From a virus, in the IMG/VR virus record IMGVR_UViG_3300025156_000001, positions 4,757 to 68,756 of that record: a DNA stretch of 64,000 nucleotides, one strand, 5' to 3'. Position 1 is the stretch's first letter, and every line of letters begins with the position of its first letter. Shown here in pieces: positions 1 through 15,814 of the stretch. The translations under genes and the position numbers were made by a program. The notes under the pieces were generated by a model that was not told where the DNA came from, ran no database searches, and was given only the letters and a program-made list of their open reading frames with translations.

Positions 1-48
1 TGTATTTATCCTTAACTGTATCATACTCAAAAGTGTGCATATTATCAC

Positions 49-924
49 CTATATATCTCTTTCTATATTGAAGTCGAGTATATCGAATGTCCCATTCCTT
101 ATCTTTTTCCCGATGGAGAAAGCCTTCTTTAGCCTACTGCCGACCTTTTTACTCCCAATATTTATATCCCTTATAGTATTACTACAACCATACTTTGGGA
201 TGTTATTTCCTTCAATCGCATACTCGAAAAACGTATGTTGGCCTGGCGCATTACCCTTTGTGATTGCATCTAATCTTACGATGTGTGCTGGGATAAGACT
301 CTCGTCCACACCCCCATCATCATCTACATCATCACCGATAATATCGACAAGTCTAAAGTAATGGTGGCTTCTATCAGATAGTCTCCTTACAAATGATAAA
401 GAGATGGCAGTAAGCGGGTGAATACCCTTATTTACAAGATGGGCAACCATCCTAACCAAATTCGGCTCGCCTATTATGGACCTTATATTACATAGGTATA
501 TATAGAATTGGGCCGGATACATTTCATCTACGTTGCGTATAACCACAACGCCTTCATTCACAGCCATGTCTATATCTACGTCCCTCGGTATATGTCCGCA
601 TGATTGTAACGACCTCAAGTATGTATCTACCTCATCAGCCTTAAGGTCTACCTTACTCTCCTCCAAATCAAATACGAATACCAAAGCCGTATGTTTATTG
701 TCTACCGGTTTGCCCTTTTCGATTAATATATCATCGATTACATGAGTATACGCATGAATAAAATCCCAAAAACAAGACACGGTTGTTATATTTTTCTTCA
801 GTTGTTTGACATCCAATTCCTCGTCGTCCGCAATACGTATTACCTTATACGAGGAACTATCCACCTTTGAGAATACACTTCTCAATTTATGCACATCTAG
901 CAGAGCCTTTCTTTCCCATGACAT
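49..924 (-). CDS. hypothetical protein, distal part of the ligase cluster
   Basis: 291 aa ORF, tightly coupled to the upstream gene with a GGGTGA SD; no motif recognised. Confidence 0.7.
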   Translation of the reverse strand: MSWERKALLDVHKLRSVFSKVDSSSYKVIRIADDEELDVKQLKKNITTVSCFWDFIHAYTHVIDDILIEKGKPVDNKHTALVFVFDLEESKVDLKADEVDTYLRSLQSCGHIPRDVDIDMAVNEGVVVIRNVDEMYPAQFYIYLCNIRSIIGEPNLVRMVAHLVNKGIHPLTAISLSFVRRLSDRSHHYFRLVDIIGDDVDDDGGVDESLIPAHIVRLDAITKGNAPGQHTFFEYAIEGNNIPKYGCSNTIRDINIGSKKVGSRLKKAFSIGKKIRNGTFDILDFNIERDI

Positions 925-926
925 GG

Positions 927-1811
927 TTAATCACCCTTTTCGTCGCCATATCCATTTACGATACCATCTTCTACGAGTTTGCTTGAAAGCCTACCATGTT
1001 TATCGGTCATTACATTCTTGACCTTTATTATTTTTATATCATCTATCCATCTGGAGCAGTAGTCAGTCAGTCTAGTATCCCATTCCCCTTCTACTCCAAC
1101 TGAACATTGGAATAGTTTTGCTGGGGGTTGGTATAATGGGTTCAGGAATGATATATTTATCCTTTCGTCCTCTACACCTGCCATCAATTCCTTTACCATA
1201 TATTTCGCCATATCAAATCTAACCTTTTCGCCCCGCACATCTATACCGTCATCACCTACTAGTATACCTATATGATATACATCTGCATTTATATATAGTT
1301 TTTGTAATGCCCTATAATTGCCTATGTGCGCCTCTTTGAAGTTACCAAGTATAAGACCGTGGACAAGTTGGTCATCACCACTATCAATATAACCATCTAT
1401 ATTAAATGGTAATATTCTGGCCCTACTTATTACTTCCCCTATAATGGGAACCAATTCCAGGTCATATACTGGAACAAATTCGTTGTCCGTATCAAATTCT
1501 ACAAGTGCAAAACTCCTATCAACATCCATTACGTTACCGTATCTAAACATATAGGCACCATCTTTGCCCATTGCATACTGTTTAACGTAGTCATCAGCCG
1601 ATAAGAAATCCTCAAGTAGTTTGATATTTATACCAGTAACAAAAACCGTCCTGCCTTCACTATCCAGATTACTATCGGATATTATATTGTACCCATAACG
1701 CCCAGTGGATTGCACGGTCCCACTATATACACTCCCCCCATATTCAAATGCTACTTTATCACCAACTTTAAATGTCTGACCCAATTTAATCACCATCATT
1801 CTCAATTCCAT
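927..1811 (-). CDS. hypothetical protein with a possible N-terminal SH3/KOW-like barrel
   Basis: 294 aa ORF; FKVGDKV...GTV pattern near the N-terminus; true start may be a few codons downstream. Confidence 0.65.
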   Translation of the reverse strand: MELRMMVIKLGQTFKVGDKVAFEYGGSVYSGTVQSTGRYGYNIISDSNLDSEGRTVFVTGINIKLLEDFLSADDYVKQYAMGKDGAYMFRYGNVMDVDRSFALVEFDTDNEFVPVYDLELVPIIGEVISRARILPFNIDGYIDSGDDQLVHGLILGNFKEAHIGNYRALQKLYINADVYHIGILVGDDGIDVRGEKVRFDMAKYMVKELMAGVEDERINISFLNPLYQPPAKLFQCSVGVEGEWDTRLTDYCSRWIDDIKIIKVKNVMTDKHGRLSSKLVEDGIVNGYGDEKGD

Positions 1812-2583
1812 TAGGCCAAAGGGTAGATACCATATGGGATACCACTATCGGCAATGAATATTCACCGAGCGTAGGTGCTGTATTACACTCGATGACATAT
1901 ACCTCGCCGTCTTTAGTTTCCAGTATATCTACTGCCCCGAAGTCCAGCCCAAGTGCCTTAACACTATCTATTGCTAAATGTATCGCCCCTAAAGTTGATA
2001 GGGTTATATCCTTTATCTGTTCCTGTCTGTACCCAAATTCCATATTCCATCTGTAATTATCCGGCTCCTCAACCATAGGCTTCTTTTCATATACAATAAG
2101 GGCCTTATATGGGGTTGCAAACACCCTATACTCTCTTGCCTTATCTATATATGCCATATAATATCCGTCATCTTCGGTATTATGCGTAGCCTCCCCGAGG
2201 TTCTCTATATACTCAAAATCCCTACCATGAGAGTGGTTTTTACCCCTCCACACTATAGGCGCATTTCTACCCAGGAAGTGTAGTAATGCCCTGGGGTTCT
2301 TATGGAATTGTGGTACATGCCAGACTATATCGCCACTATCCCTCAACACCTCCAAAGTCCTATACTTATCGGTGCTTCTGGCGATAGCCGACCTACTGTT
2401 GAATACCACGCCATTTACTTTTATACCCTTCCTAGATGTACCCCATCTTATAATATTGGTATCTCTATTATTAGGTGGGTCCTCACTGAATGTGGTTGGC
2501 ACACCCAGGATTTCAAACTCATCCCTTATTGCCCTAGCGGTTGCACCACATTTCCTACTATACATGATATGTGTATCGAACAT
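1786..2583 (-). CDS. ATP-grasp peptide/amide ligase (RimK/YheCD-like, phage type)
   Basis: IIRWG, N..AI...DK, REYRVF, LGLDFGAVDI and VIECNTAP motifs; start moved to ATG 2583 after a GGAGTGG SD. Confidence 0.9.
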   Translation of the reverse strand: MFDTHIMYSRKCGATARAIRDEFEILGVPTTFSEDPPNNRDTNIIRWGTSRKGIKVNGVVFNSRSAIARSTDKYRTLEVLRDSGDIVWHVPQFHKNPRALLHFLGRNAPIVWRGKNHSHGRDFEYIENLGEATHNTEDDGYYMAYIDKAREYRVFATPYKALIVYEKKPMVEEPDNYRWNMEFGYRQEQIKDITLSTLGAIHLAIDSVKALGLDFGAVDILETKDGEVYVIECNTAPTLGEYSLPIVVSHMVSTLWPNGIENDGD

Positions 2584-2594
2584 TTTTACCACTC

Positions 2595-2912
2595 CTATGC
2601 AGTAACATACATACACTGCGTGGTATTTGGCCTTCTTTTGATACGTATATGGACATTAATGTCCCCATACATTTCGGTGAACCATCCCATTTTTCTTATG
2701 GGTTGTTCATGATATGTCATAGTGAAATTATCTTCATTAAACTCCACTACAACGAAAGGTACACCGTTTTCCTTCTCCATATATACCTTTGTGGCTAGTA
2801 TATCTACATCGGCTAGAGAGGCGGACGACATATACTTCCTTTTGGTGTTCTTTTCTATCCTCTTTTGCAACGTATCCATTATTTCCTTCATAGATTTTTG
2901 ATTGTTCTGCAT
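2595..2912 (-). CDS. hypothetical protein
   Basis: 105 aa ORF filling the gap between amidotransferase and ATP-grasp genes; GGGTGG SD. Confidence 0.65.
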   Translation of the reverse strand: MQNNQKSMKEIMDTLQKRIEKNTKRKYMSSASLADVDILATKVYMEKENGVPFVVVEFNEDNFTMTYHEQPIRKMGWFTEMYGDINVHIRIKRRPNTTQCMYVTA

Positions 2913-2914
2913 AT

Positions 2915-3778
2915 TTAACCACCCCTTCTATTACATGTAGCCAAAATTATCAAGTTTGTCAGTTGACCTTTCAAACTCTTCTTTACTAGGCTTGTGGAGG
3001 TCCTCGATAATTTTCCTGACCGCTTTTGGTAGGTCCTCCAACTTTCCCGAGGGTTTGATTTATATGTATACGTAGAAGTATATTTTACGGTCCTTTTAGC
3101 CTTTTCGTATTTATCAATATTCGCAAGTATTTCCCAATCAGATAGTAGTTCACTACCTGGGACGGCCTTGACAACATACTTATCTATTATGTCATCGGTA
3201 AACTCCGATGCTATAATAGTCATATCGCCTATTTGCGCCACATCTAAATCTCTTGTTGTAGATGTTTTATATACCTCTAATATACCATCTTTCCTCAATG
3301 ACAGAAACACACCAGTAAAATTGGTATTTATTGGTGCGCCCATATTCAATACACCAAACCCATATAGAGATACCAGGTATGATGTTGCTTCACTATCTGA
3401 TATTTCACCGCCTCTACGTATAACATATGGTATAAGTAGGGGTTTAAATATGGAAAGGTCTGATGTTGTTGTCCCATTATGACATAGTATCTGCTCTCCA
3501 TTATTAAACGGTTGGCAGTTTTCATCTGTCTTTGGTGCCACCGTTTTTATACGGGTATGGAATAAGAAGGCACCATTATCCCATTTGGTTTTGACAGCCT
3601 TTTCTACCAATTCCTCTACCGTTTTCTCAACGCCTTTGATGACCAACGGTTCACCTTTTACCCAACCACCTATACCATTTCCGTGCCCACCTTTAGCGTC
3701 CTCAAGATGCTTAAACAAGTCCACAAGAAACTCCTTATCCTTCTTCTTTACGCCTTTGACGAAAGCCAATCTACACAA
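2915..3778 (-). CDS. class II (Ntn) glutamine amidotransferase
   Basis: TTG start at 3778 after GGTGG gives M-C-R-L with the catalytic Cys at position 2; FHTR, NCQPF, HNG and SDSE motifs. Confidence 0.9.
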   Translation of the reverse strand: MCRLAFVKGVKKKDKEFLVDLFKHLEDAKGGHGNGIGGWVKGEPLVIKGVEKTVEELVEKAVKTKWDNGAFLFHTRIKTVAPKTDENCQPFNNGEQILCHNGTTTSDLSIFKPLLIPYVIRRGGEISDSEATSYLVSLYGFGVLNMGAPINTNFTGVFLSLRKDGILEVYKTSTTRDLDVAQIGDMTIIASEFTDDIIDKYVVKAVPGSELLSDWEILANIDKYEKAKRTVKYTSTYTYKSNPRESWRTYQKRSGKLSRTSTSLVKKSLKGQLTNLIILATCNRRGG

Positions 3779-3780
3779 TT

Positions 3781-4995
3781 TTACCACCACATTACAGGCA
3801 AGTATTTATCCGAATGTGAGGACATAATATCACTTATATCATTCACAATCGTGTTGATTGCCCCCTTTTCCTTTCTGATATGGATTGGTATACCAACAAC
3901 AACACCTATGGACGGGGACAATTTTTCGTATCTCCCCCAACGTCCATGCTTCACTGTATACCCTTTCCGTTTTAGGTAGGTAATGACATCCTTACAGATA
4001 GGCCCGCTATCTTCATCGGACCACACCCATAAGTCCCTACCATGTTTGCGACCAGACCCATATATATATATGTCGCCTATACCCTTCTTCTTGATACTGG
4101 TAACATCTATATCCAGGCCACTTTCTTTACCCATATATATGTTAACCGTATTGGACTTCGGCTTGATACCCCATGAAACGAATATGTTTCTTGTAGTATC
4201 CATAGCCGTTCTCCTTCTTGTAACGTTTGATGCGAAGTGTAGGTATCTTCCAACCTCACTATATCCATCCAACGTTGTAAACCAATTGAAGATTTCATTT
4301 ATGATATTATATACATCCGTATATACGGCTTTGTTATTCCCCGACCACCGTCTATTACCACGGTCGTTCCTTTCATTCCTAAATAGCGTATTACGTTCAT
4401 ATATATCTATCAATCTCCCTATTCTTTTATCGCCTTTAACTTTATCCCAATTACGAATCATAATCCACGCAATAGATAAGTATGCACCAGTCCATATTGG
4501 GCTTGACAACCAACTATATGGTGTTCTTGTTTCAAACCCGTGATGCTTCACCCTAAAGTCGAATGGCCCCCCATACTTCCCGACTTTAAGCCTATCTATA
4601 AAGTCTTCCCCACCTGTCATCCAGTTGAAGGAAAACAATACGGCACCAAGACTTCTTGCCTTTTCATCTATCTCGCTATCGGCGGATATATGTATATGCC
4701 CACCTATTGGATGTCCAGTTGGTGCACCACCACCACGTAGCCTTATAGAACTGCCCAGGAAATCCTGGATTTTACATATTGTATCCATAAGTTCCTGAAT
4801 ACACCCTCTCATATTTTCCATGTGTTCTTCAACACTTTCGGATGGGTCGGGCCTAAACTCTATAGGTACCTGCGCACTATCACTGCCGACAGATATACCA
4901 GTAAAGTAGTCTTGTCCAGTTACACGACTACCATCAACAAATAGTACAGCTTCGGGGTCAGACCCTATAAGAAAATCCTGTGTCATTGTTATCAC
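3781..4995 (-). CDS. phiEco32-like COOH-NH2 ligase (type 2) with C-terminal extension
   Basis: IGSDPE, IEFRPDPS, GGHIH and YGG..DFR.K.HGFETRT..SWL motifs. Confidence 0.85.
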   Translation of the reverse strand: MITMTQDFLIGSDPEAVLFVDGSRVTGQDYFTGISVGSDSAQVPIEFRPDPSESVEEHMENMRGCIQELMDTICKIQDFLGSSIRLRGGGAPTGHPIGGHIHISADSEIDEKARSLGAVLFSFNWMTGGEDFIDRLKVGKYGGPFDFRVKHHGFETRTPYSWLSSPIWTGAYLSIAWIMIRNWDKVKGDKRIGRLIDIYERNTLFRNERNDRGNRRWSGNNKAVYTDVYNIINEIFNWFTTLDGYSEVGRYLHFASNVTRRRTAMDTTRNIFVSWGIKPKSNTVNIYMGKESGLDIDVTSIKKKGIGDIYIYGSGRKHGRDLWVWSDEDSGPICKDVITYLKRKGYTVKHGRWGRYEKLSPSIGVVVGIPIHIRKEKGAINTIVNDISDIMSSHSDKYLPVMWW

Positions 4996-5177
4996 TCCTC
5001 AACACATTCCCAAAATGCCTTTGTAATTACATCCATACGTTTGGATGTAACTACATTTATCATTTCGGATAGGTGGTTCTTTACAATATGGTCTGTCATT
5101 CTAACAGTAACCAAATATGGGTTAACACCCGCCTCTTTATGGCTACAAAATGGGCATATATCATTCATTGAAAACAC
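4992..5177 (-). CDS. small C2H2-like zinc finger protein
   Basis: CPFC...HIVKNH pattern. Confidence 0.6.
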   Translation of the reverse strand: MFSMNDICPFCSHKEAGVNPYLVTVRMTDHIVKNHLSEMINVVTSKRMDVITKAFWECVEE

Positions 5178-5355
5178 CTCTTATCAGCACATTAGCCTTT
5201 GTCTTTCTGCCGTGCTTTTCCACAGTAGCATATATATGGGCTTTAGCCAATATTTCAACGATGTCCTCTGCTATTTCGACATCCAGTTTACTGTATTTTA
5301 CCTTCATATACCTTTCTCCTTCGCGTTTTTTAGCCATTCTATATAGTCGGTGCAT
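5161..5355 (-). CDS. hypothetical protein
   Basis: Short ORF in operon context; true start probably the MKVKYS methionine overlapping the upstream stop. Confidence 0.5.
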   Translation of the reverse strand: MHRLYRMAKKREGERYMKVKYSKLDVEIAEDIVEILAKAHIYATVEKHGRKTKANVLIRGVFNE

Positions 5356-5693
5356 CTAATCATACTATATCTCGACGTTTTATAGTCCTGATAGAAGTTA
5401 AATGGGGCAAGTTTGTTGTTATCCAAAGTGGATGTAGTGGAAACATACATACCCAATGACGAGTAGAATTTGTGTACATCTTCCGATATTTTACCGGTTA
5501 TACTATACAATTCTACTACATATTCATCCGTGCCATATCCACTATGGTATTTAAGTCTCGGTATACCATTAGCATCAATCATAAGTGTATATTGCCCAAC
5601 ATATTTTATCTTTCTAAATGGTGCCAAATCACCCAGATAATATCTATGTAATGGGCCGCCCTCTCTCAACAACCCATACTCTCCTAGTATCAT
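5304..5693 (-). CDS. divergent gamma-glutamylcyclotransferase (GGCT/AIG2)-like protein
   Basis: YGLLREGGPLH resembles the GGCT YG[TS]LRxG motif; VELY resembles the xEVY strand; catalytic Glu not evident. Confidence 0.55.
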   Translation of the reverse strand: MILGEYGLLREGGPLHRYYLGDLAPFRKIKYVGQYTLMIDANGIPRLKYHSGYGTDEYVVELYSITGKISEDVHKFYSSLGMYVSTTSTLDNNKLAPFNFYQDYKTSRYSMIRCTDYIEWLKNAKEKGI

Positions 5694-5697
5694 TGTA

Positions 5698-6186
5698 TTA
5701 TACCCCCATAGTATGTTCCATTATACCAGTCCTAACCTCATCGATTGGTAAATCAAACCCGTACTCGTATATTATACCATTTCTTATATCTTTCTTCATC
5801 TCACTTATTAGCCATTTGTCATCCAACGTATCGAAGAACGCTTTGTACATATTTTCGTTCGTCCATAGGAATACCTTTGGTAGTTTGGTGTTCTTGACAC
5901 TACCCCTATCATTATTATCAATGATAAGCCTTTTTGAACTGCCATCTGAATTTACACGATTGCCACCATACATAGGAACGTAAGTCAAAAATATAGTAGG
6001 AATTACAATACCATTTTTATAGTTATGCAGTATATTATTTCCTTTATATCCCACATATACTGGTGTGCTATCACCTATAAATCGTAGTCTAAATACTATA
6101 TCTTTATCCATGCCAGTTATCTTTATATGTGATGGTAATATTACTGCATCACTTTTATCATCAAGCAAATCTATCGTTGTCTTCAT
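5698..6186 (-). CDS. PxxExxTGIxEH-family paralog (copy 9, separated from the main array)
   Basis: LPSHI near N-terminus, LPKVFL, C-terminal LPIDEVRTGIMEHT. Confidence 0.8.
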   Translation of the reverse strand: MKTTIDLLDDKSDAVILPSHIKITGMDKDIVFRLRFIGDSTPVYVGYKGNNILHNYKNGIVIPTIFLTYVPMYGGNRVNSDGSSKRLIIDNNDRGSVKNTKLPKVFLWTNENMYKAFFDTLDDKWLISEMKKDIRNGIIYEYGFDLPIDEVRTGIMEHTMGV

Positions 6187-6190
6187 ATAG

Positions 6191-6469
6191 TTACCTCCTA
6201 CTTTCTATATAGTCGAGGAACCTAATCACTATATTTATAGGGGTATAATTCTGGAATTTTACTGTACCATTTCTCCTGTTCCAATAGCACCAGTACTTAA
6301 TAGACTTATCCTTCTTAATTGGAACGGTAATAGTCATCTCTGTATATTCTTCTTCAATATGTATTCCCCCATCTCCTCCCCCACTATCTACTATAACCAT
6401 ATCATCTATTGTATCCAATTGGCTAGTTATTGCCTTATCGCGTATCTCTTTATCTCTTTTAGTGGGCAT
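6191..6469 (-). CDS. hypothetical protein
   Basis: 92 aa ORF with AGGTGA SD. Confidence 0.7.
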   Translation of the reverse strand: MPTKRDKEIRDKAITSQLDTIDDMVIVDSGGGDGGIHIEEEYTEMTITVPIKKDKSIKYWCYWNRRNGTVKFQNYTPINIVIRFLDYIESRR

Positions 6470-6478
6470 GAAATCACC

Positions 6479-7366
6479 TTATAACCATATACTGTAAAGG
6501 TCATTATCATTATTTTCTGTACGAAGGGCATAACTTATTAGTTCCTTACTCTTATCACTAAAGATATTCCATTTGGATATTAATTCCCCAAGTAGGGATG
6601 TGGCATAGTGCGGGTCCTCTACCGCTTTCACTATAACACTTTCGCCAATACTCTTAACTATACCAGGCCCGTTTTGGGACATATGGTAGATGGCATCTTC
6701 CACCAACGAATAAACAAGTCTAGTGTAGAGAGGGCTTTTAAGCCAGTAGTTTGATAGAGTGCGGTATTCTACCCCATAAGATGTCTTACGGAAACAACCG
6801 GCCCTACCGTATAATTTCCTCCGTTCCGTTGCATCCTTCGAGTTATCTATAACGGATGATACGACACCCAAGAATAGGTCTAATACCTTTATAAATTGCA
6901 TTGAATCGTAATGGTCCAAAAGGAATAAGGTATCGGGGTCATCATCAAATCCTATATGTATATGGCCGCCACAACTCCTAAAGGTTGGGAAATCTTCTGG
7001 ACTAGGTGGTTCGTTGGTCATACCTGTATATGCGGACAGGTCTGGAGAGCACCCAAACAGTTTTGCCTCTGGACTAGACACTTCCTCTATTGGGAAGTTT
7101 GCGGATGCCAGTACAACTGGTCTTATGCTATTATCAAGTCTATCATGTAATAGGTGGACCGTATCTCTTACGGCTTTAACCCATTCATTTTCATTATGGG
7201 CTGGCGGTGTGCCAAACTCGGCGCATACATTATCCCATTGTATCATCCCACCATTAGGTAGTTCAACGGGTTTTTCTTTTGTCCCATTTATATATGGTAT
7301 CGCAGATACCAATCTACCCCTTTTTGCGACAAATACTTCTGGGTCGCATCCTATTGTAAATTTCAT
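6479..7366 (-). CDS. phiEco32-like COOH-NH2 ligase (type 2)
   Basis: TIGCDPEVF, QWDNVCAEF, FGCSPD, FRSCGGHIH and RRKLYGRAGCFRKTSYGVEYRTLSNYW motifs, a textbook pattern. Confidence 0.93.
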   Translation of the reverse strand: MKFTIGCDPEVFVAKRGRLVSAIPYINGTKEKPVELPNGGMIQWDNVCAEFGTPPAHNENEWVKAVRDTVHLLHDRLDNSIRPVVLASANFPIEEVSSPEAKLFGCSPDLSAYTGMTNEPPSPEDFPTFRSCGGHIHIGFDDDPDTLFLLDHYDSMQFIKVLDLFLGVVSSVIDNSKDATERRKLYGRAGCFRKTSYGVEYRTLSNYWLKSPLYTRLVYSLVEDAIYHMSQNGPGIVKSIGESVIVKAVEDPHYATSLLGELISKWNIFSDKSKELISYALRTENNDNDLYSIWL

Positions 7367-7370
7367 TTAA

Positions 7371-7814
7371 TCACCCATTGTAATATATATCTGTGATGTG
7401 TTCGATTATACCAGTTTCAAGCTCGTTCTCCGGCATACCCCCCAGCGTAGTTATATGTAGTGTTCCCTTTAGGTAGTCAATCGTAAAGCCATTTGATTTA
7501 TATGAGGATGCCACCCTCCTTACATCATACGTATGAAACATGTTCCAGAATGTACGTGGTACTCTCATGTTATTTTCTGCGAAGGCATTTTCTAAAGCCC
7601 TACACGGGTGGGCTTCATGGCCCATATATTTTACGGCGATACGTGGCGACCCTGGTAGGTCTCTACGTATATACTCCCCATTTACAAGCGGGTATAATAT
7701 CATCCGCCCATCTGTTTTCTCTTTAACTATTTTTAAACCTGGTATCTCCGTATAGATAACATCAGGCAGAATATTAATATCCATGTGGTTCACCCCTATA
7801 ATCACTCTTGTCAT
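7371..7814 (-). CDS. PxxExxTGIxEH-family paralog (copy 8)
   Basis: LPDVI, MGHE, VPRTFW, MPENELETGIIEHI; likely start ATG 7784 after GGGGTGA. Confidence 0.85.
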   Translation of the reverse strand: MTRVIIGVNHMDINILPDVIYTEIPGLKIVKEKTDGRMILYPLVNGEYIRRDLPGSPRIAVKYMGHEAHPCRALENAFAENNMRVPRTFWNMFHTYDVRRVASSYKSNGFTIDYLKGTLHITTLGGMPENELETGIIEHITDIYYNG

Positions 7815-8205
7815 ACGGTATATCTGTATGCTCGTGTATTCCAGAATTCATCTCATCTTTTGGGATTTTGTTATTAAACACCGCATACAATCTCTCCTCC
7901 AGAAACTTCCTGTTGAAACGCGGCGCCCTATATGACAATGCGCACATCTTTGCACATTCCGTATTGTTAATATAGTAGAATGCTCCTGGTACATACCCAT
8001 CCTTACCAAATAACGTTTCTATGGTTTTTGAACCTCTAGCCTGATGTCCACCATAGTGTATTGCTATTGGGATACCCCACTCCCTACGTATAATTATACT
8101 ATTTACACATGGTAAAAGTAGTGTTTTTCCATAAACCTCACGTTTTTCTATTGTAACGTTAGGTATCAACGTTGGGATAACACTCGGTAGCTTCGATAAA
8201 TCCAT
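7774..8205 (-). CDS. PxxExxTGIxEH-family paralog (copy 7)
   Basis: LPSVI, GGHQARGS, VPGAFY, IPKDEMNSGIHEHT. Confidence 0.85.
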   Translation of the reverse strand: MDLSKLPSVIPTLIPNVTIEKREVYGKTLLLPCVNSIIIRREWGIPIAIHYGGHQARGSKTIETLFGKDGYVPGAFYYINNTECAKMCALSYRAPRFNRKFLEERLYAVFNNKIPKDEMNSGIHEHTDIPYDKSDYRGEPHGY

Positions 8206-8223
8206 CTATACACCCCAATACCT

Positions 8224-8634
8224 TTAAGTTATATGCTCATATATACCGGTTTCGATTTCATTATTTGGTAGGTTACTATCAAGTATAATTAGCGCGCCGG
8301 CGGAAGATAAAAATGATATAGCTTCAGTATAATTCTTTGTATAACTCCTTAATGTGGTAGTATTTTTAGATATCCATCGAAATACGTGTGGTACCCGCAC
8401 CCCTGTTACAGCTATATGTTTTTGCCAGTTGTTAATATCACTCCCACCTGAATTGCTAACAAAAGTCAGGAAGAAATGGTTCTCCGGTACCCCGTGTCCC
8501 TCAAAATAGATACGTTTTCCATTCTTATCTCTTGCTACATATATATCGTAACCTGCCTGTTGTTCAAGAAAGAACGTAACTTCAGGTATTATACTTTTAA
8601 ACCTGATATGGGTAGGCAATTTTGTGTCTATCAT
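8224..8634 (-). CDS. PxxExxTGIxEH-family paralog (copy 6)
   Basis: LPTHI, VPHVFR, LPNNEIETGIYEHIT-stop; AGGTGA SD. Confidence 0.85.
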   Translation of the reverse strand: MIDTKLPTHIRFKSIIPEVTFFLEQQAGYDIYVARDKNGKRIYFEGHGVPENHFFLTFVSNSGGSDINNWQKHIAVTGVRVPHVFRWISKNTTTLRSYTKNYTEAISFLSSAGALIILDSNLPNNEIETGIYEHIT

Positions 8635-8639
8635 CTATA

Positions 8640-9044
8640 TCACCTATCTACGTGCTCCCATATACCAGTAGCGGATTCCTCTTCTGGTATAGTAATCTTA
8701 CCAAACAGTTTTATTATTCGTGATAACAAATCGTCATCGGAGTACGAACGGCTAGCTTCCTCCGCGCTATTGCCACCATATATACCCCAAAATATTTCCG
8801 GTAAATCTCCCCTATCGTGGAACCGATGGGATATAATGCTACCTCTCGCCCGATGTCCCTCTGTATGGATAGCAAGTGGCACATTATCATAGAGGCACCT
8901 TTCACCGTCCACATACACAATTAAAAGTTCGTGCCCATACATTGTTTCTTTATGTAGCTCCACGCCAGGCATCTTTGATGATGCTATTATATCTGGATAC
9001 CCATCTAAATACAATATACCACATCCATTATTTGTATTGAACAC
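8640..9044 (-). CDS. PxxExxTGIxEH-family paralog (copy 5)
   Basis: YPDII, PGVELHKETMYG, EGHRARGS, LPEIFW, IPEEESATGIWEHV; start uncertain. Confidence 0.85.
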   Translation of the reverse strand: MFNTNNGCGILYLDGYPDIIASSKMPGVELHKETMYGHELLIVYVDGERCLYDNVPLAIHTEGHRARGSIISHRFHDRGDLPEIFWGIYGGNSAEEASRSYSDDDLLSRIIKLFGKITIPEEESATGIWEHVDR

Positions 9045-9456
9045 GACAATTTATATGTTCGTATATACCTGTATTCTTTTCGTTTGTTGGCAATTCATAC
9101 GCATCGAAATATTTTTGTAGTGAATCAACTAGCCTATTTATCCACTTCTCCTCTAATGCCCCATCCAAATCTGCTTTTGACCTAACGTACCAAAACATTC
9201 GAGGCGGTAATATACCCTCTTTTTTATATTTTTTGTAAAAATCTATTGGGCCCATATGCCCATATGGACATATAATTATGCTATTACCGGCATGAATACA
9301 CGGTTTGTCCATATAGTAAACACGTAGGACCTTGGCCCCATACATTGTTTCTTTATGTAGTTCTAGCCCAGGTATATGTTTCGATACAAGTATATCCGGT
9401 ACTTTGTCTGCCCACATCATATTAAACACCATTGTATTCCGCGATATAATCGCCAC
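9028..9456 (-). CDS. PxxExxTGIxEH-family paralog (copy 4)
   Basis: VPDIL, PGLELHKETMYG, YGHM, PPRMFW, LPTNEKNTGIYEHI; true start probably MMWADK. Confidence 0.85.
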   Translation of the reverse strand: MAIISRNTMVFNMMWADKVPDILVSKHIPGLELHKETMYGAKVLRVYYMDKPCIHAGNSIIICPYGHMGPIDFYKKYKKEGILPPRMFWYVRSKADLDGALEEKWINRLVDSLQKYFDAYELPTNEKNTGIYEHINCRVQYK

Positions 9457-9787
9457 TTTTTATTATGGGATAGGTTTTATTTATCGCCCTCTCTCTTGCC
9501 CATACCCATATATCGGCTTTACCGACAGGTGTTTCTATCTCCTCTTTGTGGTATCCAGCACCCAACTCCATAATATCTATAGAGTTGTATGTGCTATCCG
9601 GCACATCATATACCTCTATCTTGACATCCCTCATATTGTTGTCGTTTACAAGTGCGGGATATGAATATGGTAGTACCATTATATAAGGTAATGGCACAAA
9701 CCCACTGAAAAGTGGCTTACCTATAGACTTCCTATAATTATATCCACCCTCTCGGAGGGTGCCGTACACCGCTATTCTCTTTACCAT
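9422..9787 (-). CDS. gamma-glutamylcyclotransferase (GGCT/AIG2-like)
   Basis: AVYGTLREG, YPAL, IEVYDV and D..E..Y motifs; AGGTGA SD. Confidence 0.92.
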   Translation of the reverse strand: MVKRIAVYGTLREGGYNYRKSIGKPLFSGFVPLPYIMVLPYSYPALVNDNNMRDVKIEVYDVPDSTYNSIDIMELGAGYHKEEIETPVGKADIWVWARERAINKTYPIIKSGDYIAEYNGV

Positions 9788-9798
9788 TTATATCACCT

Positions 9799-10194
9799 TT
9801 ACTCTATATGCTCATATATCATGGTTTCAATCTCTTTTTGGGGTAGTTCGAATGTACCCATATACATTTTAATTTTATCCATAGTGTAGGAAAAAAGACA
9901 CTCAAGTGCTTCATTTATATCTCCAACATAATAGAATATAGCAGGTATACTAATTGGTGCGCCACAGCCACTTGAATAAAACCTTTTAACAGCTTCAGTT
10001 GGCCCAGAATGTCCATCGAAATTTATACATAATGGATTTCCAGTTCTAACACTAGATTGTGGTGAACCGTCTAGGAATACTCTTAATAATGGCTGGTTCT
10101 GTATAAGTTGTTTCCTTGCAGATAACCTATGGCATGTGCCTTTTATAAATAAGATTTCAGGTATGTCTTTCACGGTACCACTCCATATGCTCAT
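9799..10194 (-). CDS. PxxExxTGIxEH-family paralog (copy 3)
   Basis: IPEIL, DGHS, IPAIFY, LPQKEIETMIYEHIE-stop. Confidence 0.85.
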   Translation of the reverse strand: MSIWSGTVKDIPEILFIKGTCHRLSARKQLIQNQPLLRVFLDGSPQSSVRTGNPLCINFDGHSGPTEAVKRFYSSGCGAPISIPAIFYYVGDINEALECLFSYTMDKIKMYMGTFELPQKEIETMIYEHIE

Positions 10195-10615
10195 GAATAC
10201 CAGTGTTTTCCTCTTCTACCGGTAAATTATATAATTGAAGATAGTCTTTCATAACCCTTTTTGAATACGAGCGCCTGCATAGTATGGCGTCTCCACCATC
10301 AAATACGTAGTAAAATATATATGGTATACTCTTCTTCCTGTTCAAATAGTATGTGAAAACATCCGGTGTTACATGGTCGTGCCCATTACTAGATAGCGCA
10401 ATGCATAATGGCCTACCGGTTTCACTGCTATTTTGTGGTACACCATTGAGGTACACCCTATATACATCATGCCCACAGATATTTTCTAATACACCTATTA
10501 ATTCCTCCCCATCTATGCGGACAATTTCTGGCAACTCAAATTTAACGATACTATAACCCCCATTGTTATTCGATGTGCTCATATATACCTGATACCATTT
10601 CTTCATATGGCACAT
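10157..10615 (-). CDS. PxxExxTGIxEH-family paralog (copy 2)
   Basis: LPEIV, NGHD, IPYIFY, LPVEEENTGIHEHM; true start is downstream of the ORF-track start. Confidence 0.85.
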   Translation of the reverse strand: MCHMKKWYQVYMSTSNNNGGYSIVKFELPEIVRIDGEELIGVLENICGHDVYRVYLNGVPQNSSETGRPLCIALSSNGHDHVTPDVFTYYLNRKKSIPYIFYYVFDGGDAILCRRSYSKRVMKDYLQLYNLPVEEENTGIHEHMEWYRERHT

Positions 10616-10910
10616 TTTGTGGTATATATTTTTTGATATTGTGCATTAAATACGTACTGTTGCAAACTAACGCATCCCCTTTATCATAGACATAAAAGAA
10701 TATCCTAGGTGGGTCTTGTTCTATGGAACGGTATGCTATAAACCCCCCATACCCACAATTATCGTGCCCGTTAAACTTTAGGCACAACGGCATTGGGTAT
10801 GATGCGAGTTCGCCGTCTACATATACCACATAAACGTATACCCCATATAGTTTTTCGAGCCTGGCTATTATCCTATTCTTAACCAACTCCAAACACAATG
10901 GCAATTCCAT
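10566..10910 (-). CDS. PxxExxTGIxEH-family paralog (copy 1)
   Basis: LPLCL, NGHD, PPRIFF, VPYEEMVSGIYEHIE-stop; GGAGG SD. Confidence 0.85.
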   Translation of the reverse strand: MELPLCLELVKNRIIARLEKLYGVYVYVVYVDGELASYPMPLCLKFNGHDNCGYGGFIAYRSIEQDPPRIFFYVYDKGDALVCNSTYLMHNIKKYIPQNVPYEEMVSGIYEHIE

Positions 10911-10963
10911 ATCATACCTCCATATCCTACTATCAATATTTGTGTTCCACTTGCCATTTCAAT

Positions 10964-11053
10964 TCATATGAATATATCCCTGTATTGTTCTCGTATTCCT
11001 TTTATATAGTTATATTCTCTATGGCCGTATAGCCTATGGTAGTCTGGATGCAT
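10964..11053 (-). CDS. 29 aa microprotein (not in ORF track)
   Basis: MHPDYHRLYGHREYNYIKGIREQYRDIFI, preceded by AGGTGA SD. Confidence 0.5.
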   Translation of the reverse strand: MHPDYHRLYGHREYNYIKGIREQYRDIFI

Positions 11054-11061
11054 ATTATCAC

Positions 11062-11175
11062 CTATTCTTCTTTCTTTTCATATAGTAGACATTGATGAGA
11101 GTGTGGGGATACAACATAAGTACTCGATAGCATACATGTATGACTACCGTAGTGCTTACAATCTATACATGGCAT
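11062..11175 (-). CDS. 37 aa Cys-rich microprotein (not in ORF track)
   Basis: MPCIDCKHYGSHTCMLSSTYVVSPHSHQCLLYEKKEE; GAAGTGA SD-like site. Confidence 0.6.
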   Translation of the reverse strand: MPCIDCKHYGSHTCMLSSTYVVSPHSHQCLLYEKKEE

Positions 11176-11188
11176 ATTATCACTTCAT

Positions 11189-11920
11189 TTAGTATTTATA
11201 TACATCGTCGATTACATCCTTCGCTATATTATGCGCCATTCTACATATTTTAAATAGATTTTTAAATGTCTTTGCGTTCATAGGCAGAGACCTATACTCA
11301 AAGCCGTGGTCCTTAAGCCTCCAGAACCCCTTCTGCCTATAAGAGTTTAGTGGCTCATCTTGTAGGAACGACTTTATATATGGGTGTTTCTCAAACCTCC
11401 TAACAAATTCTTCTATATCTCTTTTTGCCCATGAAAAGACAAAGTTTACCTCGGTGTTACCATCGATAAGCGTGGTCTTGTTTGCGGAGATGTGTATATG
11501 TAGCCCACCCCCCCTATATATATGCCCATCTATATCCCTATGACGCATCTTATTGCCATATATATTACCACCAACTATCTCCTCTTTATAATTGGAATAG
11601 GAGGTAGCGCACCGTAGTACATTTTCCCAATATTCCTCTGTGGTAAAGGGGTATTCCTTTGTGGACATATGATACCCCTTATAGTCCCCTCCCAAATGCC
11701 TAAACCTATCCACCACATCATTATACTTCTCTACAAACGAACCGAAAGCAACACCAGGAGTACCGTAATCACTTCTTATCTCCGCTAGGAGGTCGAAGTT
11801 ATCCCTCGGTATACTATATGGTGCCGGACACGGTTTGCCTTTTTTATCCAGTATGAGGAACTCACCCTCAATACCTATATCTATCCTATTCGGCTTCATG
11901 CCAAGTACACTTGTAGACAT
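11189..11920 (-). CDS. third, divergent COOH-NH2 ligase (phiEco32 type 2-like)
   Basis: IGIEGEF, D...EIRS, GGGLHIH and YRQKGFWRLKDHGFEYRSL; start placed at ATG 11920 after GAAGGTG to remove the overlap with the upstream gene. Confidence 0.8.
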   Translation of the reverse strand: MSTSVLGMKPNRIDIGIEGEFLILDKKGKPCPAPYSIPRDNFDLLAEIRSDYGTPGVAFGSFVEKYNDVVDRFRHLGGDYKGYHMSTKEYPFTTEEYWENVLRCATSYSNYKEEIVGGNIYGNKMRHRDIDGHIYRGGGLHIHISANKTTLIDGNTEVNFVFSWAKRDIEEFVRRFEKHPYIKSFLQDEPLNSYRQKGFWRLKDHGFEYRSLPMNAKTFKNLFKICRMAHNIAKDVIDDVYKY

Positions 11921-11936
11921 ATTATACACCTTCTGT

Positions 11937-12455
11937 TTATTCCGTAGGAATAATATCTTTGTAATTGTAATCGTAACGGTATCTATTTCTATATCGTTGG
12001 CTCTCATCCCACTCAACGGTATACCAATGTGTACCCCCGTCCCAATTATACCCATTGTGTTCCGTTTTGGGGACCTCCACCACCGTACCTAATTGCTTCA
12101 CTCCATTCTTATCGCGGTCTTGGTCCCACCATTCCCATGAGGGTCCCCTCTTTACCCTATCTCCAACCTTTAGAGTTGGTATATTCCTATTAAGAACAAC
12201 CCCAATCAGGGGTTCTATAAGGTAACGTCTGTAAGAGATACCCTCCTTATTAATCGCATCATTTTCCACCTTAATATACCATTCTACAAATTCTACCCCC
12301 TTCTTTGTTGGTGGTACATTATCATCTATCCACCTTCTTTGTACATTGGAGCACGGATTATACCTCTTGAGAAACGAAGCGAATTTTTTGTAGTATGTAC
12401 CATTATACTTCTCCAATTCTTTAACCTTATATCTATTTAACTTGTGCATATACAT
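11937..12455 (-). CDS. protein with C-terminal MIB/HERC2-like domain
   Basis: VGDRVKRGPSWEWWDQD...GTVVEV...VEWD...NRYRY...D matches the MIB/HERC2 consensus GxRVxRGPDWxWxxQD...GTV...VxWD...NxYR...D. Confidence 0.75.
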   Translation of the reverse strand: MYMHKLNRYKVKELEKYNGTYYKKFASFLKRYNPCSNVQRRWIDDNVPPTKKGVEFVEWYIKVENDAINKEGISYRRYLIEPLIGVVLNRNIPTLKVGDRVKRGPSWEWWDQDRDKNGVKQLGTVVEVPKTEHNGYNWDGGTHWYTVEWDESQRYRNRYRYDYNYKDIIPTE

Positions 12456-12469
12456 CTATATGCCCCCAA

Positions 12470-12739
12470 CTACTTACCCTCTTCTCTAGCCTTTCTCTTC
12501 ATGCCCTGGTAATAACAGTATATCTCAAACTCATCCAGGAAACCCCTAACAGGCTTTATGTTTAGATACCCGAGTTTCCTCAAGTAGTTTGTACCGAGCC
12601 CCGCCCTGTCGGGGTGTGGCCCTTTAACTTTATCCTTATTGGCAATATGCCTCTCATTGGCAGTTGCAACACCCTTCAACCGCCTCAATCTAACCCTATC
12701 CTTTACCTTTTTCTTATTACTGTATACCATCTTAATCAC
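12470..12739 (-). CDS. basic hypothetical protein
   Basis: 89 aa ORF in operon context; likely start at MVYSNK. Confidence 0.6.
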   Translation of the reverse strand: MIKMVYSNKKKVKDRVRLRRLKGVATANERHIANKDKVKGPHPDRAGLGTNYLRKLGYLNIKPVRGFLDEFEIYCYYQGMKRKAREEGK

Positions 12740-12887
12740 CCTTCTTTTCCCAATCGTTGATTATCTCTGATATGGCTTCTGCCATATAGTAACAAAAGTT
12801 TCGTAAACTTACAGGTTCGGATGATTTGAAGCGATAATCTATATGCTCCTCATCCTCTCCAACTTCTACTTCTAGTTCTATTTTCAT
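12732..12887 (-). CDS. 51 aa acidic hypothetical protein (not in ORF track)
   Basis: MKIELEVEVGEDEEHIDYRF... fills the gap between flanking genes exactly. Confidence 0.6.
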   Translation of the reverse strand: MKIELEVEVGEDEEHIDYRFKSSEPVSLRNFCYYMAEAISEIINDWEKKGD

Positions 12888-12888
12888 T

Positions 12889-13419
12889 TTACCATTCCCC
12901 ATCTATTTGTTTTTGCCCAAATAACAATGGGAATACCACTTCCGCAGATACAGGTGAGTAATCCCATACATCTACACCAACATTAACTACATTCTCTATG
13001 TTCCTAAACAGGTGGTGGACATGCCCACATATAAATAACTTTTTCTTTAACACGCCCGCCACTGCGGGGTCGTGTATAAGGGTTATATCATACCCGTTTA
13101 CCTCTAGTTTTAAAGATGTATGAACGGACTCGAAGCCCATATCTACATAATCGAATGGTTTTAAGTTATCGTGATTGCCAAGTATAAGCACCTTCCTACC
13201 CTTTAGGGAACGTATTTTCTTCTCCAGCATATCTTTACTAACCTCATACCACGAGGCTATATCGCCGAGGAAATATACGGTATCGCCCCCTTTCACTATA
13301 CTATTATAATTTCTAGTTATAATAGCATTCATCTCTTTTACCGACCTAAATGGCCGACTTTCATACTTTAATATATTGGTATGCCAAAAGTGTTGGTCTG
13401 ACGTGAAGTATATAGCCAT
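12889..13419 (-). CDS. calcineurin-like metallophosphoesterase
   Basis: TSDQHF.H, LGD, GNHD and GHVH motifs; NVGVD. Confidence 0.92.
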   Translation of the reverse strand: MAIYFTSDQHFWHTNILKYESRPFRSVKEMNAIITRNYNSIVKGGDTVYFLGDIASWYEVSKDMLEKKIRSLKGRKVLILGNHDNLKPFDYVDMGFESVHTSLKLEVNGYDITLIHDPAVAGVLKKKLFICGHVHHLFRNIENVVNVGVDVWDYSPVSAEVVFPLLFGQKQIDGEW

Positions 13420-13421
13420 AA

Positions 13422-13556
13422 TTAACCCTCATATACCTTTACAAGCCTGGCATTTAGATATGCAGGGGCTTCTTTGAGTACCTCTGCAACCTCCTCCTCG
13501 TGTCTTTTACGTAAAGCGTCTATCTTTACGAACCACCTCAACTCATCTTTATCCAT
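13422..13556 (-). CDS. 44 aa hypothetical protein (not in ORF track)
   Basis: MDKDELRWFVKIDALRKRHEEEVAEV...; GAGGTG SD; coupled to neighbours. Confidence 0.55.
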   Translation of the reverse strand: MDKDELRWFVKIDALRKRHEEEVAEVLKEAPAYLNARLVKVYEG

Positions 13557-13759
13557 CATTTATACACCTCATCTACTTTTTGCCATACCTCTACATGTAG
13601 ACGCCCACAATCTGGGCATATGTGTGTCTTTATGGACCACGTATCGTCAATAGCATCCAATTTGTGAAGTACCTTCACGGCACCCTTAACGGATAAAAGC
13701 CCCTCATCAAGAAGGGCCTTTACCCTATTTATTTCTTTAATCATATCCATTGTAATCAC
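13556..13759 (-). CDS. hypothetical protein with CPDCG motif
   Basis: 67 aa ORF overlapping neighbours' start/stop codons. Confidence 0.6.
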   Translation of the reverse strand: MITMDMIKEINRVKALLDEGLLSVKGAVKVLHKLDAIDDTWSIKTHICPDCGRLHVEVWQKVDEVYK

Positions 13760-14136
13760 TTCACTATTTCCAATACCTTTAGGGCATTACCTTCATAAAC
13801 AGAATATCTACGTGAGGATGGATAAAATATCCATGTACCTTTTGCCCCTATTTTTGTAAGTCTAACCTTTATTATATATGGTTTAACACCCATTATAGTC
13901 CAAAAGGATTTGGCTACTATCCATTTTCGGAGGGCTTTGGCATCTGCCAAATTCTCAAATACCGAAAAACCAGGTGTGTGTTTCGTCCTATGTGTTTTCC
14001 CTATAACATATCTAAAGATTCTATATATATCGTGCTTGAACCAACTACGTAGCTCATTATCGACCACCTTATACCCTATTACACTCCGAGGTAATTTGCT
14101 CCCAGTTATTATAGGGTAGTCTGGAGATAAACACAC
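13756..14136 (-). CDS. hypothetical viral protein
   Basis: 126 aa ORF, GTG start after GGTGAG; GYKVV...PGFSVF..LADA pattern reminiscent of common phage hypotheticals. Confidence 0.65.
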   Translation of the reverse strand: MCLSPDYPIITGSKLPRSVIGYKVVDNELRSWFKHDIYRIFRYVIGKTHRTKHTPGFSVFENLADAKALRKWIVAKSFWTIMGVKPYIIKVRLTKIGAKGTWIFYPSSRRYSVYEGNALKVLEIVK

Positions 14137-14140
14137 GTTC

Positions 14141-14545
14141 TCACCGCGCCCATCTCTCTACCGTATCTTTTATGGTACTCCACCCTCTAAAGAGTGGCCC
14201 CTCATTCTTATGGCTTACCCTTATGTAACCCATCTTGTTTTCCAACTTGAGTTTACATAAGGAAATCCCTATGAGGGGGTCCCATACATCTTCCCTCGAG
14301 CATCTTATACGCGCCGTTACCCTGTCTCGCCCAAGATACATTATCCCAGATACCCTACGCCGTTCCTTGTCGACATAGAATTTAAATTTTGCCTCCCCCA
14401 TAACCATATCTATTATAGGGGGTATTGTGTGTATTGGTCGCATGTCTATCACCAAAATCGAATTCCATCCTAATAATAAATAGTATTTCAGCCTTTTCGT
14501 TTGTTCTCCAATGTTGTTTATGATAGTTAGAGGCTTTTTTCTCAT
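14141..14545 (-). CDS. hypothetical protein
   Basis: ORF overlaps the upstream gene, so the true start is probably near 14400; ARIRCSREDVWDPLIG..L segment. Confidence 0.55.
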   Translation of the reverse strand: MRKKPLTIINNIGEQTKRLKYYLLLGWNSILVIDMRPIHTIPPIIDMVMGEAKFKFYVDKERRRVSGIMYLGRDRVTARIRCSREDVWDPLIGISLCKLKLENKMGYIRVSHKNEGPLFRGWSTIKDTVERWAR

Positions 14546-15135: not shown

Positions 15136-15204
15136 GTTTTCAACTCCTTTCGGTTATTGATGAACGTAAATACCCAGGGGCGAAAGCCACCTGTTTATAG
15201 GGTT

Positions 15205-15582: not shown

Positions 15583-15597
15583 GTTTTTCCCTCATGT

Positions 15598-15762: not shown

Positions 15763-15814
15763 CTTTTATCACCTACCCCCTAACGATTACACGTTTAGGG
15801 GCCAATTAATGCCC

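Follow-up and report, generated by a model that had tools for sequence, protein, structure and literature searches.

A putative enlarged phiEco32-type amidoligase module interleaved with nine orphan paralogs in a probable archaeal virus

The window analysed here, a stretch of 64,000 nucleotides comprising bases 4757-68756 of the 68,756-base virus record IMGVR_UViG_3300025156_000001, opens with a block of genes at positions 49-12455 that can be read as a divergent, enlarged amidoligase module of the phiEco32 type, extended to work on or through a family of nine paralogous proteins and carried by a probable archaeal virus. To this reading as a whole we assign an even chance of being correct. Judged from sequence, the core enzymes are of the known phiEco32-type kind, and what appears to be new here is the triplication of the ligase together with the nine-member orphan family. 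Every open reading frame (ORF) of the block lies on the minus strand, the junctions are mostly small gaps or overlaps, and the only sizeable gaps are at 5178-5303 and 10911-11188, in agreement with the original prediction made from this DNA, which had described a tight one-strand block of about 12 kb. The inventory of enzymes given there was likewise recovered: three PF14395-type COOH-NH2 ligases (glutamine-synthetase or GCS2-like fold), one RimK-like ATP-grasp ligase, one class II glutamine amidotransferase (GATase) and two proteins with the fold of gamma-glutamylamine cyclotransferases (GGACT), all placed in Table 1. The edge of the window does not end the block, as the genome runs a further 4756 bases past the window start with genes on the same strand.

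Enzymes of the block and their phage counterparts

The three ligases differ in how close they stand to known families. Ligase 1 is the canonical form, with 1622 homologues and a homologue in 313 of 50,697 phage records. Ligase 2, the long form, carries a C-terminal domain of about 200 amino acids, and only four non-self homologues were found, three of which are also about 400 amino acids long and have the C-terminal part in common. Ligase 3, at 11189-12055, has no Pfam match; beyond the local hidden Markov model (HMM) of the PF14395 family, it is placed by the ESM Atlas, with feature scores of 0.95 and 0.94 and 27 of 30 matches in the PF14395 set, and by its structure, with template-modelling (TM) scores of 0.67 and 0.63 to PF14395 clusters. 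The ESM Atlas record begins at residue 46, which is likely the true start and would give a protein of 243 amino acids at 11189-11920. In the family alignment of ligase 1 the residues D8, P9 and E10, G133 and H135, and E200, Y201 and R202 are invariant, and the equivalent columns are likewise invariant in the alignment of ligase 2. Ligase 3 has E-G-E, H-I-H and E-Y-R, the local HMM alignment spanning the part from H-x-H to E-Y-R. The motifs of the PF14395 family (D/E-x-E, G-H-x-H and E-Y/T-R) are thus found in all three, and the three predicted ligases would be expected to carry out ATP-dependent carboxylate-amine ligation.

The partner enzymes show a similar mixture of recognizable and divergent features. 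Pfam matches of the ATP-grasp protein fall below the gathering score, its assignment coming from the PHROG, local HMM and TIGR00768 matches. The GATase at 2915-3790 has no Pfam match and a weak top match among PDB entries (3mdn, E 0.17), and was identified by a local GATase-II HMM built from GATase_6 proteins of IMG/VR loci. In alignment with 40 canonical GATase-II proteins it keeps the HxR, DENxxPF, HNGT and DS motifs, and its Cys6 falls on their M-C start. A TTG codon stands immediately ahead of this Cys and offers a candidate start at 3778, two to three bases past the stop of ligase 2; it is the probable start of the gene, giving an M-C N-terminus, and the position of Cys6 together with this codon makes an N-terminal catalytic Cys plausible. 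The protein has 291 amino acids against a family median of 425. A fusion of GATase with a ligase was sought by comparing the C-terminal portions of 23 long GATase-II proteins with the ligase HMMs and the proteins of the window, and none matched. The adjoining gene for ligase 2 is the only link of the GATase to a synthase partner that could receive ammonia. Ligases 2 and 3 and the GATase are all basic (isoelectric point, pI, 8.7-9.3). GGACT no. 1 is a clear family member (PF06094, 50 bits against a cut-off of 22.8). GGACT no. 2 matches it at the N-terminus only and no HMM, Pfam or local, and is assigned to this class by its predicted fold alone, with 23 of 30 ESM Atlas matches in GGACT clusters.

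The phage module with which the block was compared, that of phiEco32 and LUZ24-type phages, is reported to have been described by Iyer, Abhiman, Burroughs and Aravind in Mol Biosyst in 2009. Our reference set consisted of 80 IMG/VR loci selected by alignment of ligase homologues, with family HMMs built from their ORFs. Within these loci GATase-II co-occurs in 72, Amidoligase_2 in 71, ATP-grasp in 70, Peptidase_C26 in 65 and GGACT in 25; Pfam checks show the module in IMG/VR loci L028 and L079, and the annotated Citrobacter phage CVT22 carries the same set of enzymes. The link to phiEco32-type phage clusters drawn in the original prediction is therefore well founded. Altogether the module was found in 397 IMG/VR stretches and in the 313 phage records already mentioned. 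Family PF14395 itself takes its Pfam name from the phiEco32-type module. Like that module, the block combines a PF14395 ligase, a RimK-like ATP-grasp, a class II GATase and GGACT in a co-directional early block. It differs in being without Amidoligase_2 (PF12224), for which there was no match to the local HMM at E <= 10, to family 2 at E <= 1 or in Pfam, and without Peptidase_C26 or a class I GATase, for which there was no match to the local HMM at E <= 10 or in Pfam. It also has three PF14395-type ligases, whereas the canonical loci have 81 matches in 80 loci and are nearly always single-copy, and two GGACT proteins, whereas the canonical loci have none or one each (25 matches in 25 loci). 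The GATase is a stand-alone protein here, shorter than the canonical median, and nine orphan paralogs are interleaved with the enzymes, of which the canonical loci have none.

The nine paralogs and what the module may act on

Nine ORFs of the block, 114-162 amino acids long, form a single family when aligned, with identities of 19-38% to the reference copy. A search of the six-frame translated genome with the family HMM gives exactly nine members, and the core motif also occurs exactly nine times. The few invariant residues cluster in a tail, P-x-x-E-x-x-x-[GM]-I-x-E-H; the tails are acidic and the bodies variable, and the motif lies at the very C-terminus in only two of the nine copies. When 1.84 billion representative proteins were searched with the family profile, 12 matched. 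Nine are the family itself or a near-identical strain, and two are real outside homologues (E 3e-12 and 2e-10), whose contigs, 697 and 534 bases long, give no gene context. The twelfth, the 1578-amino-acid protein P0132 (E 8e-4), is probably a spurious match, its Pfam rows holding no significant stretches. Immediately before G-I of the motif all nine copies have T or S, and the two outside homologues have R and K. The motif is absent from all 5431 ORFs of the 80 canonical loci, and hhalign comparison of the paralogs with 34 conserved families of those loci gave probabilities below 1% for 33 and no output for one.

AlphaFold2 models were obtained for two copies, at 10566-10910 (predicted local distance difference test, pLDDT, 87.1; predicted TM score, pTM, 0.79) and at 8640-9044 (pLDDT 77.8, pTM 0.72). 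In both, four strands are followed by a helix, a short strand and, last, three helices, and the conserved tail is the least confident end, with pLDDT blocks of 64 and 52 in the first model and of 54 and 42 in the second. As modelled, a tail that is conserved and yet of low confidence would look like a flexible docking or acceptor peptide. A Foldseek search with the paralog model found nothing in PDB or BFVD at E <= 0.001; three rows for ubiquitin-E2 proteins (E 2.0-5.4, TM 0.20-0.29) were taken as noise. The paralog profile likewise returned only rows with E values of 1.8-2.0 among PDB sequences, and nothing from PADLOC. The family is a well-supported orphan without an analogue of solved structure.

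A comparison between strains indicates where selection may act. The block was found in contigs of four runs from four studies, one of them possibly the source itself. Run X3 holds a variant strain at 95-99% identity that covers 30 of 30 bins, and runs X2 and X4 cover 21 and 15 of the 30. The differences considered here are the best-supported 40 among 147, come from single low-depth contigs and are indicative only. Within this list all 14 differences in the ATP-grasp, the GATase and ligases 1 and 3 are synonymous (ATP-grasp 3/3, ligase 1 6/6, ligase 3 3/3), an indication that these four enzymes may be under purifying selection. Paralog 8 has three listed differences at the motif positions T, I and H, all synonymous, and seven at variable positions, all non-synonymous. 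A role of the tail motif as ribosome site of the next gene was considered and rejected, as a GGTG-type site, where seen, lies 3' of the stop and the synonymous positions vary. By this comparison the motif appears to be constrained at the level of the protein.

These sequences are best read as a system for glutamyl or amide ligation at the expense of ATP, in which the paralogs are candidates for the role of acceptor or adaptor. In both ligase families, COOH-NH2 and ATP-grasp, the amide bond is made by way of an ATP-activated carboxylate, and class II GATases set ammonia free from glutamine. In the proposed mechanism each ligase would activate a carboxylate with ATP as an acyl-phosphate and then join it to an amine, the GATase, whose gene abuts that of ligase 2, would supply ammonia for an amidation step, and the ATP-grasp enzyme would add glutamate in the manner of RimK-family enzymes. 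The two extra, basic ligases and the second GGACT would act on, or through, the nine paralogs, whose acidic flexible tail might dock with a ligase and present an invariant Glu for ligation or, alternatively, bring a bound target to the enzyme. The GGACT proteins could then release 5-oxoproline from gamma-glutamyl amines and so trim or recycle the adduct. Here the eraser role claimed in the original prediction stands in part, in that the family does cleave free gamma-glutamyl amines; its extension to protein-to-protein linkages does not, since we know of no GGACT-type enzyme that cleaves these. The family reaction, conversion of free gamma-glutamyl amines into 5-oxoproline and the amine, is cited in bioRxiv 10.1101/2025.02.15.638363. 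Reversible protein tagging by the block is put forward as a hypothesis. In its fullest form the virus would encode a protein-linked amide-ligation system of its own, in which the paralogs, as proteins of a new fold with an invariant Glu in the tail, are acceptors or adaptors that become glutamylated, amidated or ligated to targets and GGACT trims the product, in a logic that would be comparable to that of LysW carriers or pupylation; this version is offered tentatively and is rather unlikely as it stands.

The comparison with known systems can be made more specific. RimK acts on ribosomal protein S6 and LysX/ArgX on the carrier LysW, both with ATP-grasp enzymes, and PafA/Dop act on Pup with a glutamine-synthetase fold, and the RimK, LysW and Pup systems all act on a small protein whose tail is conserved, acidic and flexible and ends in or contains the reactive Glu. 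The enzyme folds of the block are identical to those of RimK, LysX/ArgX and PafA/Dop. The substrates are less alike. LysW is a zinc ribbon with an EDWGE ending and Pup is disordered with a GGQ/E ending, whereas the paralogs have neither a zinc ribbon nor disorder nor either ending. Graspetide precursors, in turn, are short, consist of a leader and a core, and have fixed pairs of Thr/Ser/Lys with Asp/Glu that are cross-linked by ATP-grasp enzymes. The paralogs do have a T/S and two invariant Glu, but they are folded domains of 114-162 amino acids and the T/S is replaced by R or K in the two outside homologues.

Several observations weigh against the ligation scheme. Only gene position ties the paralogs to the enzymes. 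In many phages, numbering in the hundreds, ligase 1, the ATP-grasp, the GATase and GGACT function without any such paralog, which implies that their native substrate is something else. The tail motif is internal in seven of the nine copies, unlike the tails of RimK, LysW and Pup substrates, and the exchange of T/S for R/K before G-I argues against a fixed nucleophile at that position. The models of the paralogs were built on alignments of 11-12 sequences, and GGACT no. 1 has eight of its ten listed differences non-synonymous and may be under relaxed or diversifying selection. A predicted complex of ligase 1 with paralog 1 scored 0.00 against a mark of 0.32 and counts neither way. Of the earlier claim that the block includes candidate substrates or adaptors, the existence of a real nine-member paralog family has been confirmed, and no result shows the ligases acting on it.

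These considerations lead to the strongest rival explanation, that the array is an unrelated family of early genes, perhaps binders used in host take-over or anti-defence, which share a long early operon with enzymes that make or modify a small molecule or a host component just as in bacteriophages, no viral protein being their substrate. This is possible, at less than an even chance. The core enzymes occur in 65-72 of the 80 loci without any such family, and the paralogs evolve fast outside the motif, as such an account would have it. What speaks against mere cohabitation is the arrangement itself: two ligases flank eight copies that have a GGACT gene amid them, a ligase and the second GGACT flank the ninth, the array coincides with the unusual triplication of the ligase and duplication of GGACT, and the invariant acidic tail resembles a docking or acceptor peptide.

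The interest of the ligation scheme lies in the module itself. In the literature searched on the phiEco32-type module we found genomic mentions and proposals only, none of which identifies a product or a substrate. Ordinary copies of the module lack what is seen here, nine proteins of the virus itself that share an invariant acidic tail and lie amid the enzymes; these proteins are the obvious candidate substrates or adaptors, and make this copy a practical entry point to the function of the module. If the paralogs prove to be modified, the chemistry of the whole module becomes readable. If they are acceptors, they would be the first experimentally tractable substrate for a phage amidoligase module that has lacked an explanation since 2009, and the archaeal virus might turn out to use a new chemistry for tagging proteins. 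Even if unmodified they would be an orphan family in a near-singleton lineage with archaeal-type replication and promoter signals.

Host of the virus and alternative roles of the module

The record is classed as complete with direct terminal repeats: its first 30 bases reappear 99 bases short of its end, which gives a 99-base direct terminal repeat and a genome of 68.7 kb. By its encoded gene set the virus appears to be a tailed virus, and the genome also encodes a PD-(D/E)XK nuclease and an N6/N4 methylase. Its terminase, capsid, portal and a 452-amino-acid protein of the replication module have no tblastn match in the 50,697 phage records, among 5.8 billion proteins the terminase has only two homologues other than itself (79% and 40% identity), and no close relatives turned up when IMG/VR was scanned with ligase 1, the terminase or P0130, one protein at a time. 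These searches suggest a near-singleton lineage with almost no known relatives. Virus DNA is present in marine, hydrothermal-vent and sediment metagenomes; none of the sequencing runs that hold it is listed as RNA, and a tRNA scan of the genome found no tRNA.

The host is probably an archaeon, and probably one from marine or hydrothermal sediment. The family-B DNA polymerase (PolB) is collinear over its full length with family-B polymerases of Thermococcales (E 1e-57), compared with E 1e-37 for Pol delta and E 6e-33 for E. coli Pol II, and is far more distant from the phage or E. coli Pol II entries of the phage collection (22-25% identity). A motif resembling the B recognition element and TATA box (BRE/TATA) of archaeal promoters, MAAMN-TTTAWATA, occurs four times against 0.23 +/- 0.49 expected, and in three copies the TATA-like part is centred 26-33 bases before a start (those of 19726-20535, 21079-21519 and the portal gene). 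This distance is the geometry of archaeal BRE/TATA promoters, and the sites are candidates for promoters of archaeal type that would serve the divergent structural and early units. Ribosome sites point in the same direction. GGTG-N5-ATG is found at 27 sites against 9.5 +/- 3.2 expected (for example 38-49, 11051-11062, 30011-30022 and 52158-52169), often as GGTGAT-AAT-ATG, whereas GGAGG-N6-ATG is not enriched (3 against 2.15 expected), and the virus thus seems to use a GGTG(AT)-type ribosome-binding site at fixed spacing. Sigma-70-like sites are not in excess (63 against 75.5 +/- 9.8 expected), and no peptidoglycan hydrolase or envelope enzyme was found in the genome by Pfam.

If the host were instead a bacterium, the block would simply be another bacteriophage copy of the module and the archaeal framing would be wrong. 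Four observations argue for this. The only species-genome matches of the methylase are bacterial metagenome-assembled genomes, at 38-43% identity; DUF3310, the phosphoesterases and the module itself are a typical bacteriophage set; terminator-like sites, a hairpin followed by T, are enriched (29 against 12.0 +/- 4.4 expected); and the listed hosts and organism names of the 313 ligase-bearing phage records are all bacterial. Against them stand the polymerase, the promoter-like motif, the GGTG type of ribosome site, the lack of excess of sigma-70-like sites and the Pfam result just given, and we consider a bacterial host somewhat unlikely. The description of the virus as archaeal in the original prediction is in this sense favoured by the polymerase, the BRE/TATA-like motif, the GGTG sites and the habitat, and opposed by the methylase matches and the bacteriophage-typical gene set.

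An archaeal setting alone would not be new, since the module is already in print for predicted archaeal viruses (PMC11706807; bioRxiv 10.1101/2025.02.15.638363). Vyasavirus brisbanense, a predicted archaeal tailed virus, has an amidoligase, a GATase and a metallophosphoesterase (PMC11706807), and DNTV-1 of Nanohaloarchaeota has two ATP-grasp proteins, a stand-alone GlmS-type glutaminase domain and a GGCT (bioRxiv 10.1101/2025.02.15.638363). A figure key in the latter work also lists a carboxylate-amine ligase and LysW, the virus not being named there. The accessible text of these two accounts describes no tight 12-kb block, ligase triplication or paralog array. Adrikavirales have no DNA polymerase, and the present genome, with its PolB, is therefore a different virus.

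The nature of the host also bears on the proposal that the module modifies the cell envelope during infection, acting on the peptide stems of murein or pseudomurein or on other glutamate-containing polymers. For the phiEco32 cluster, modification of the cell wall or of peptides is said to have been proposed. RimK-like ATP-grasp enzymes and COOH-NH2 ligases are indeed of the types used in peptide-stem and poly-glutamate chemistry (PMC4431377). But none of the block proteins has a transmembrane segment, the genome has no envelope enzyme or peptidoglycan hydrolase that Pfam detects, and an archaeal host without pseudomurein would have no such substrate, all of which makes an envelope role very unlikely. 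Least credible is that these are auxiliary metabolic genes boosting host nitrogen, glutamate or glutathione-type metabolism: a role in nitrogen metabolism has been proposed for a phage whose genes include amidoligase, GATase, glutathione-synthase-like and gamma-glutamylcyclotransferase (PMC10945688), and the term auxiliary metabolic gene is also applied to a predicted archaeal virus, where secondary metabolites or regulation are suggested (PMC11706807), but the ligases belong to virus-specific families, with ESM Atlas clusters 95-100% viral, and are not orthologues of metabolic enzymes, no NCBIfam equivalog was reached, and three ligases with nine orphan proteins are hard to see as a metabolic boost.

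Other features of the window

Table 1. Positions of the features discussed, in window coordinates. Lengths are in amino acids (aa).
Feature	Position	Strand	Properties	Support
Last block gene in window	49..924	-	291 aa	no Pfam, PHROG, NCBIfam or PADLOC match
Acidic ORF	927..1811	-	294 aa, pI 4.7	no match in Pfam, PHROG, NCBIfam or PADLOC
RimK-like ATP-grasp ligase	1786..2616	-	276 aa	phrog_2599 E 2.1e-22; local HMM E 3.4e-42; TIGR00768 (rimK_fam) E 2.7e-7
Basic ORF	2595..2912	-	105 aa	no library match
Class II (Ntn) GATase	2915..3790	-	291 aa, stand-alone domain	local GATase-II HMM E 2.8e-15 and 9.8e-16
Ligase 2, long form	3781..4995	-	404 aa, pI 8.7	PF14395 E 1.8e-18
ORF	4992..5177	-	61 aa	no library match
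GGACT-fold no. 2, divergent	5304..5693	-	129 aa	ESM Atlas features 0.95; TM 0.75-0.78 to PF06094 models
Paralog 9	5698..6186	-	162 aa, tail motif present	family HMM E 2.7e-24
ORF outside the paralog family	6191..6469	-	92 aa	no library match
Ligase 1, canonical phiEco32 type	6479..7366	-	295 aa	PF14395 E 2.7e-13; phrog_3815 E 1.3e-56
Paralog 8	7371-7814	-		family alignment
Paralog 7	7774-8205	-		family alignment
Paralog 6	8224-8634	-		family alignment
Paralog 5	8640-9044	-		family alignment
Paralog 4	9028-9456	-		family alignment
GGACT (gamma-glutamylamine cyclotransferase-like) no. 1	9422..9787	-	121 aa, within the paralog array	PF06094 E 5.5e-13; phrog_2520 E 3e-12; local HMM E 8e-20
Paralog 3	9799-10194	-		family alignment
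Paralog 2	10157-10615	-		family alignment
Paralog 1	10566-10910	-		family alignment
Gap with two mini-ORFs	10911..11188	-	278 bases; mini-ORFs of 37 and 29 codons	GGTG-N5-ATG site 11051-11062
Ligase 3, short form	11189..12055	-	pI 8.9	local PF14395-family HMM E 2e-6 and 1.2e-5; ESM Atlas
ORF with MIB_HERC2-like (SH3-like) C-terminal domain	11937..12455	-	172 aa	PF06701 E 7.3e-8; phrog_9469 E 4e-5
Very basic ORF	12470..12739	-	89 aa, pI 10.3	
Metallophosphoesterase	12889..13419	-	just upstream of the block	PF12850, PF00149; phrog_547 E 1.6e-40; family 20 HMM E 1.9e-39
BRE/TATA-like motif site	20560-20572	-		
BRE/TATA-like motif site	20795-20807	-		
BRE/TATA-like motif site	21044-21056	+		
Terminase	21512-23413			weak match
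BRE/TATA-like motif site	23657-23669	+		
Portal	23699-25126			weak match
Major capsid protein	27028-28041			
Tape-measure protein	38795-40735			
Family-B DNA polymerase (PolB)	54692-57055			

Several genes of the block lie outside its enzyme core. The protein of 49..924 has no relative in the 80 canonical loci and no transmembrane segment. The PF06701 match of 11937..12455 reaches 32.6 bits, just below the Pfam cut-off of 33.5, and by eye the N-terminus of 927-1811 and the N-terminal extension of the ligase homologue P0142 resemble its MIB_HERC2-like domain as small beta-barrels. In the gap at 10911..11188, GGTGATAAT precedes the second mini-ORF and a near copy, GTGATAAT, precedes the first, which has a CxxC pair. 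Such mini-ORFs, of about 25-60 codons, fill several intergenic-looking stretches (10911-11188, 51931-52612, 53690-54032 and 62124-62260); many have CxxC pairs and are zinc-ribbon-like, and in the first three stretches a GGTG-type ribosome site stands ahead of several. The family of the metallophosphoesterase beside the block is found near the ligase in 9 of the 80 loci. Past the window start the run of same-strand genes goes on, and this piece of the genome (L001, genome 1-5700) encodes a second calcineurin-like phosphoesterase at 2317-3087 (minus strand, E 4.8e-8) and a DUF3310 protein at 434-640 (minus strand, E 5.9e-17), both of kinds common in the early regions of bacteriophages.

Beyond the block, the gene at 19726-20535 encodes a 269-amino-acid protein with bacterial-type thrombospondin type 3 (calcium-binding) repeats (PF18884, E 2e-7), which are also seen as direct DNA repeats of 20-29 bases at 19808, 20102, 20330 and 20402. 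The divergent intergenic region ahead of the packaging genes holds a cluster of direct and inverted repeats at 20845-21016, made of TGTACAATATGTATAT and GTGCCTATCGGC units, with arms of 30 bases that are 87% complementary and separated by 112 bases; it could be a regulatory region or an origin. A strong hairpin of 13 pairs followed by seven T at 18114-18142 (plus strand), 3' of the plus-strand gene 17262-17867, is the sole convincing intrinsic-terminator-like site within 1-20000.

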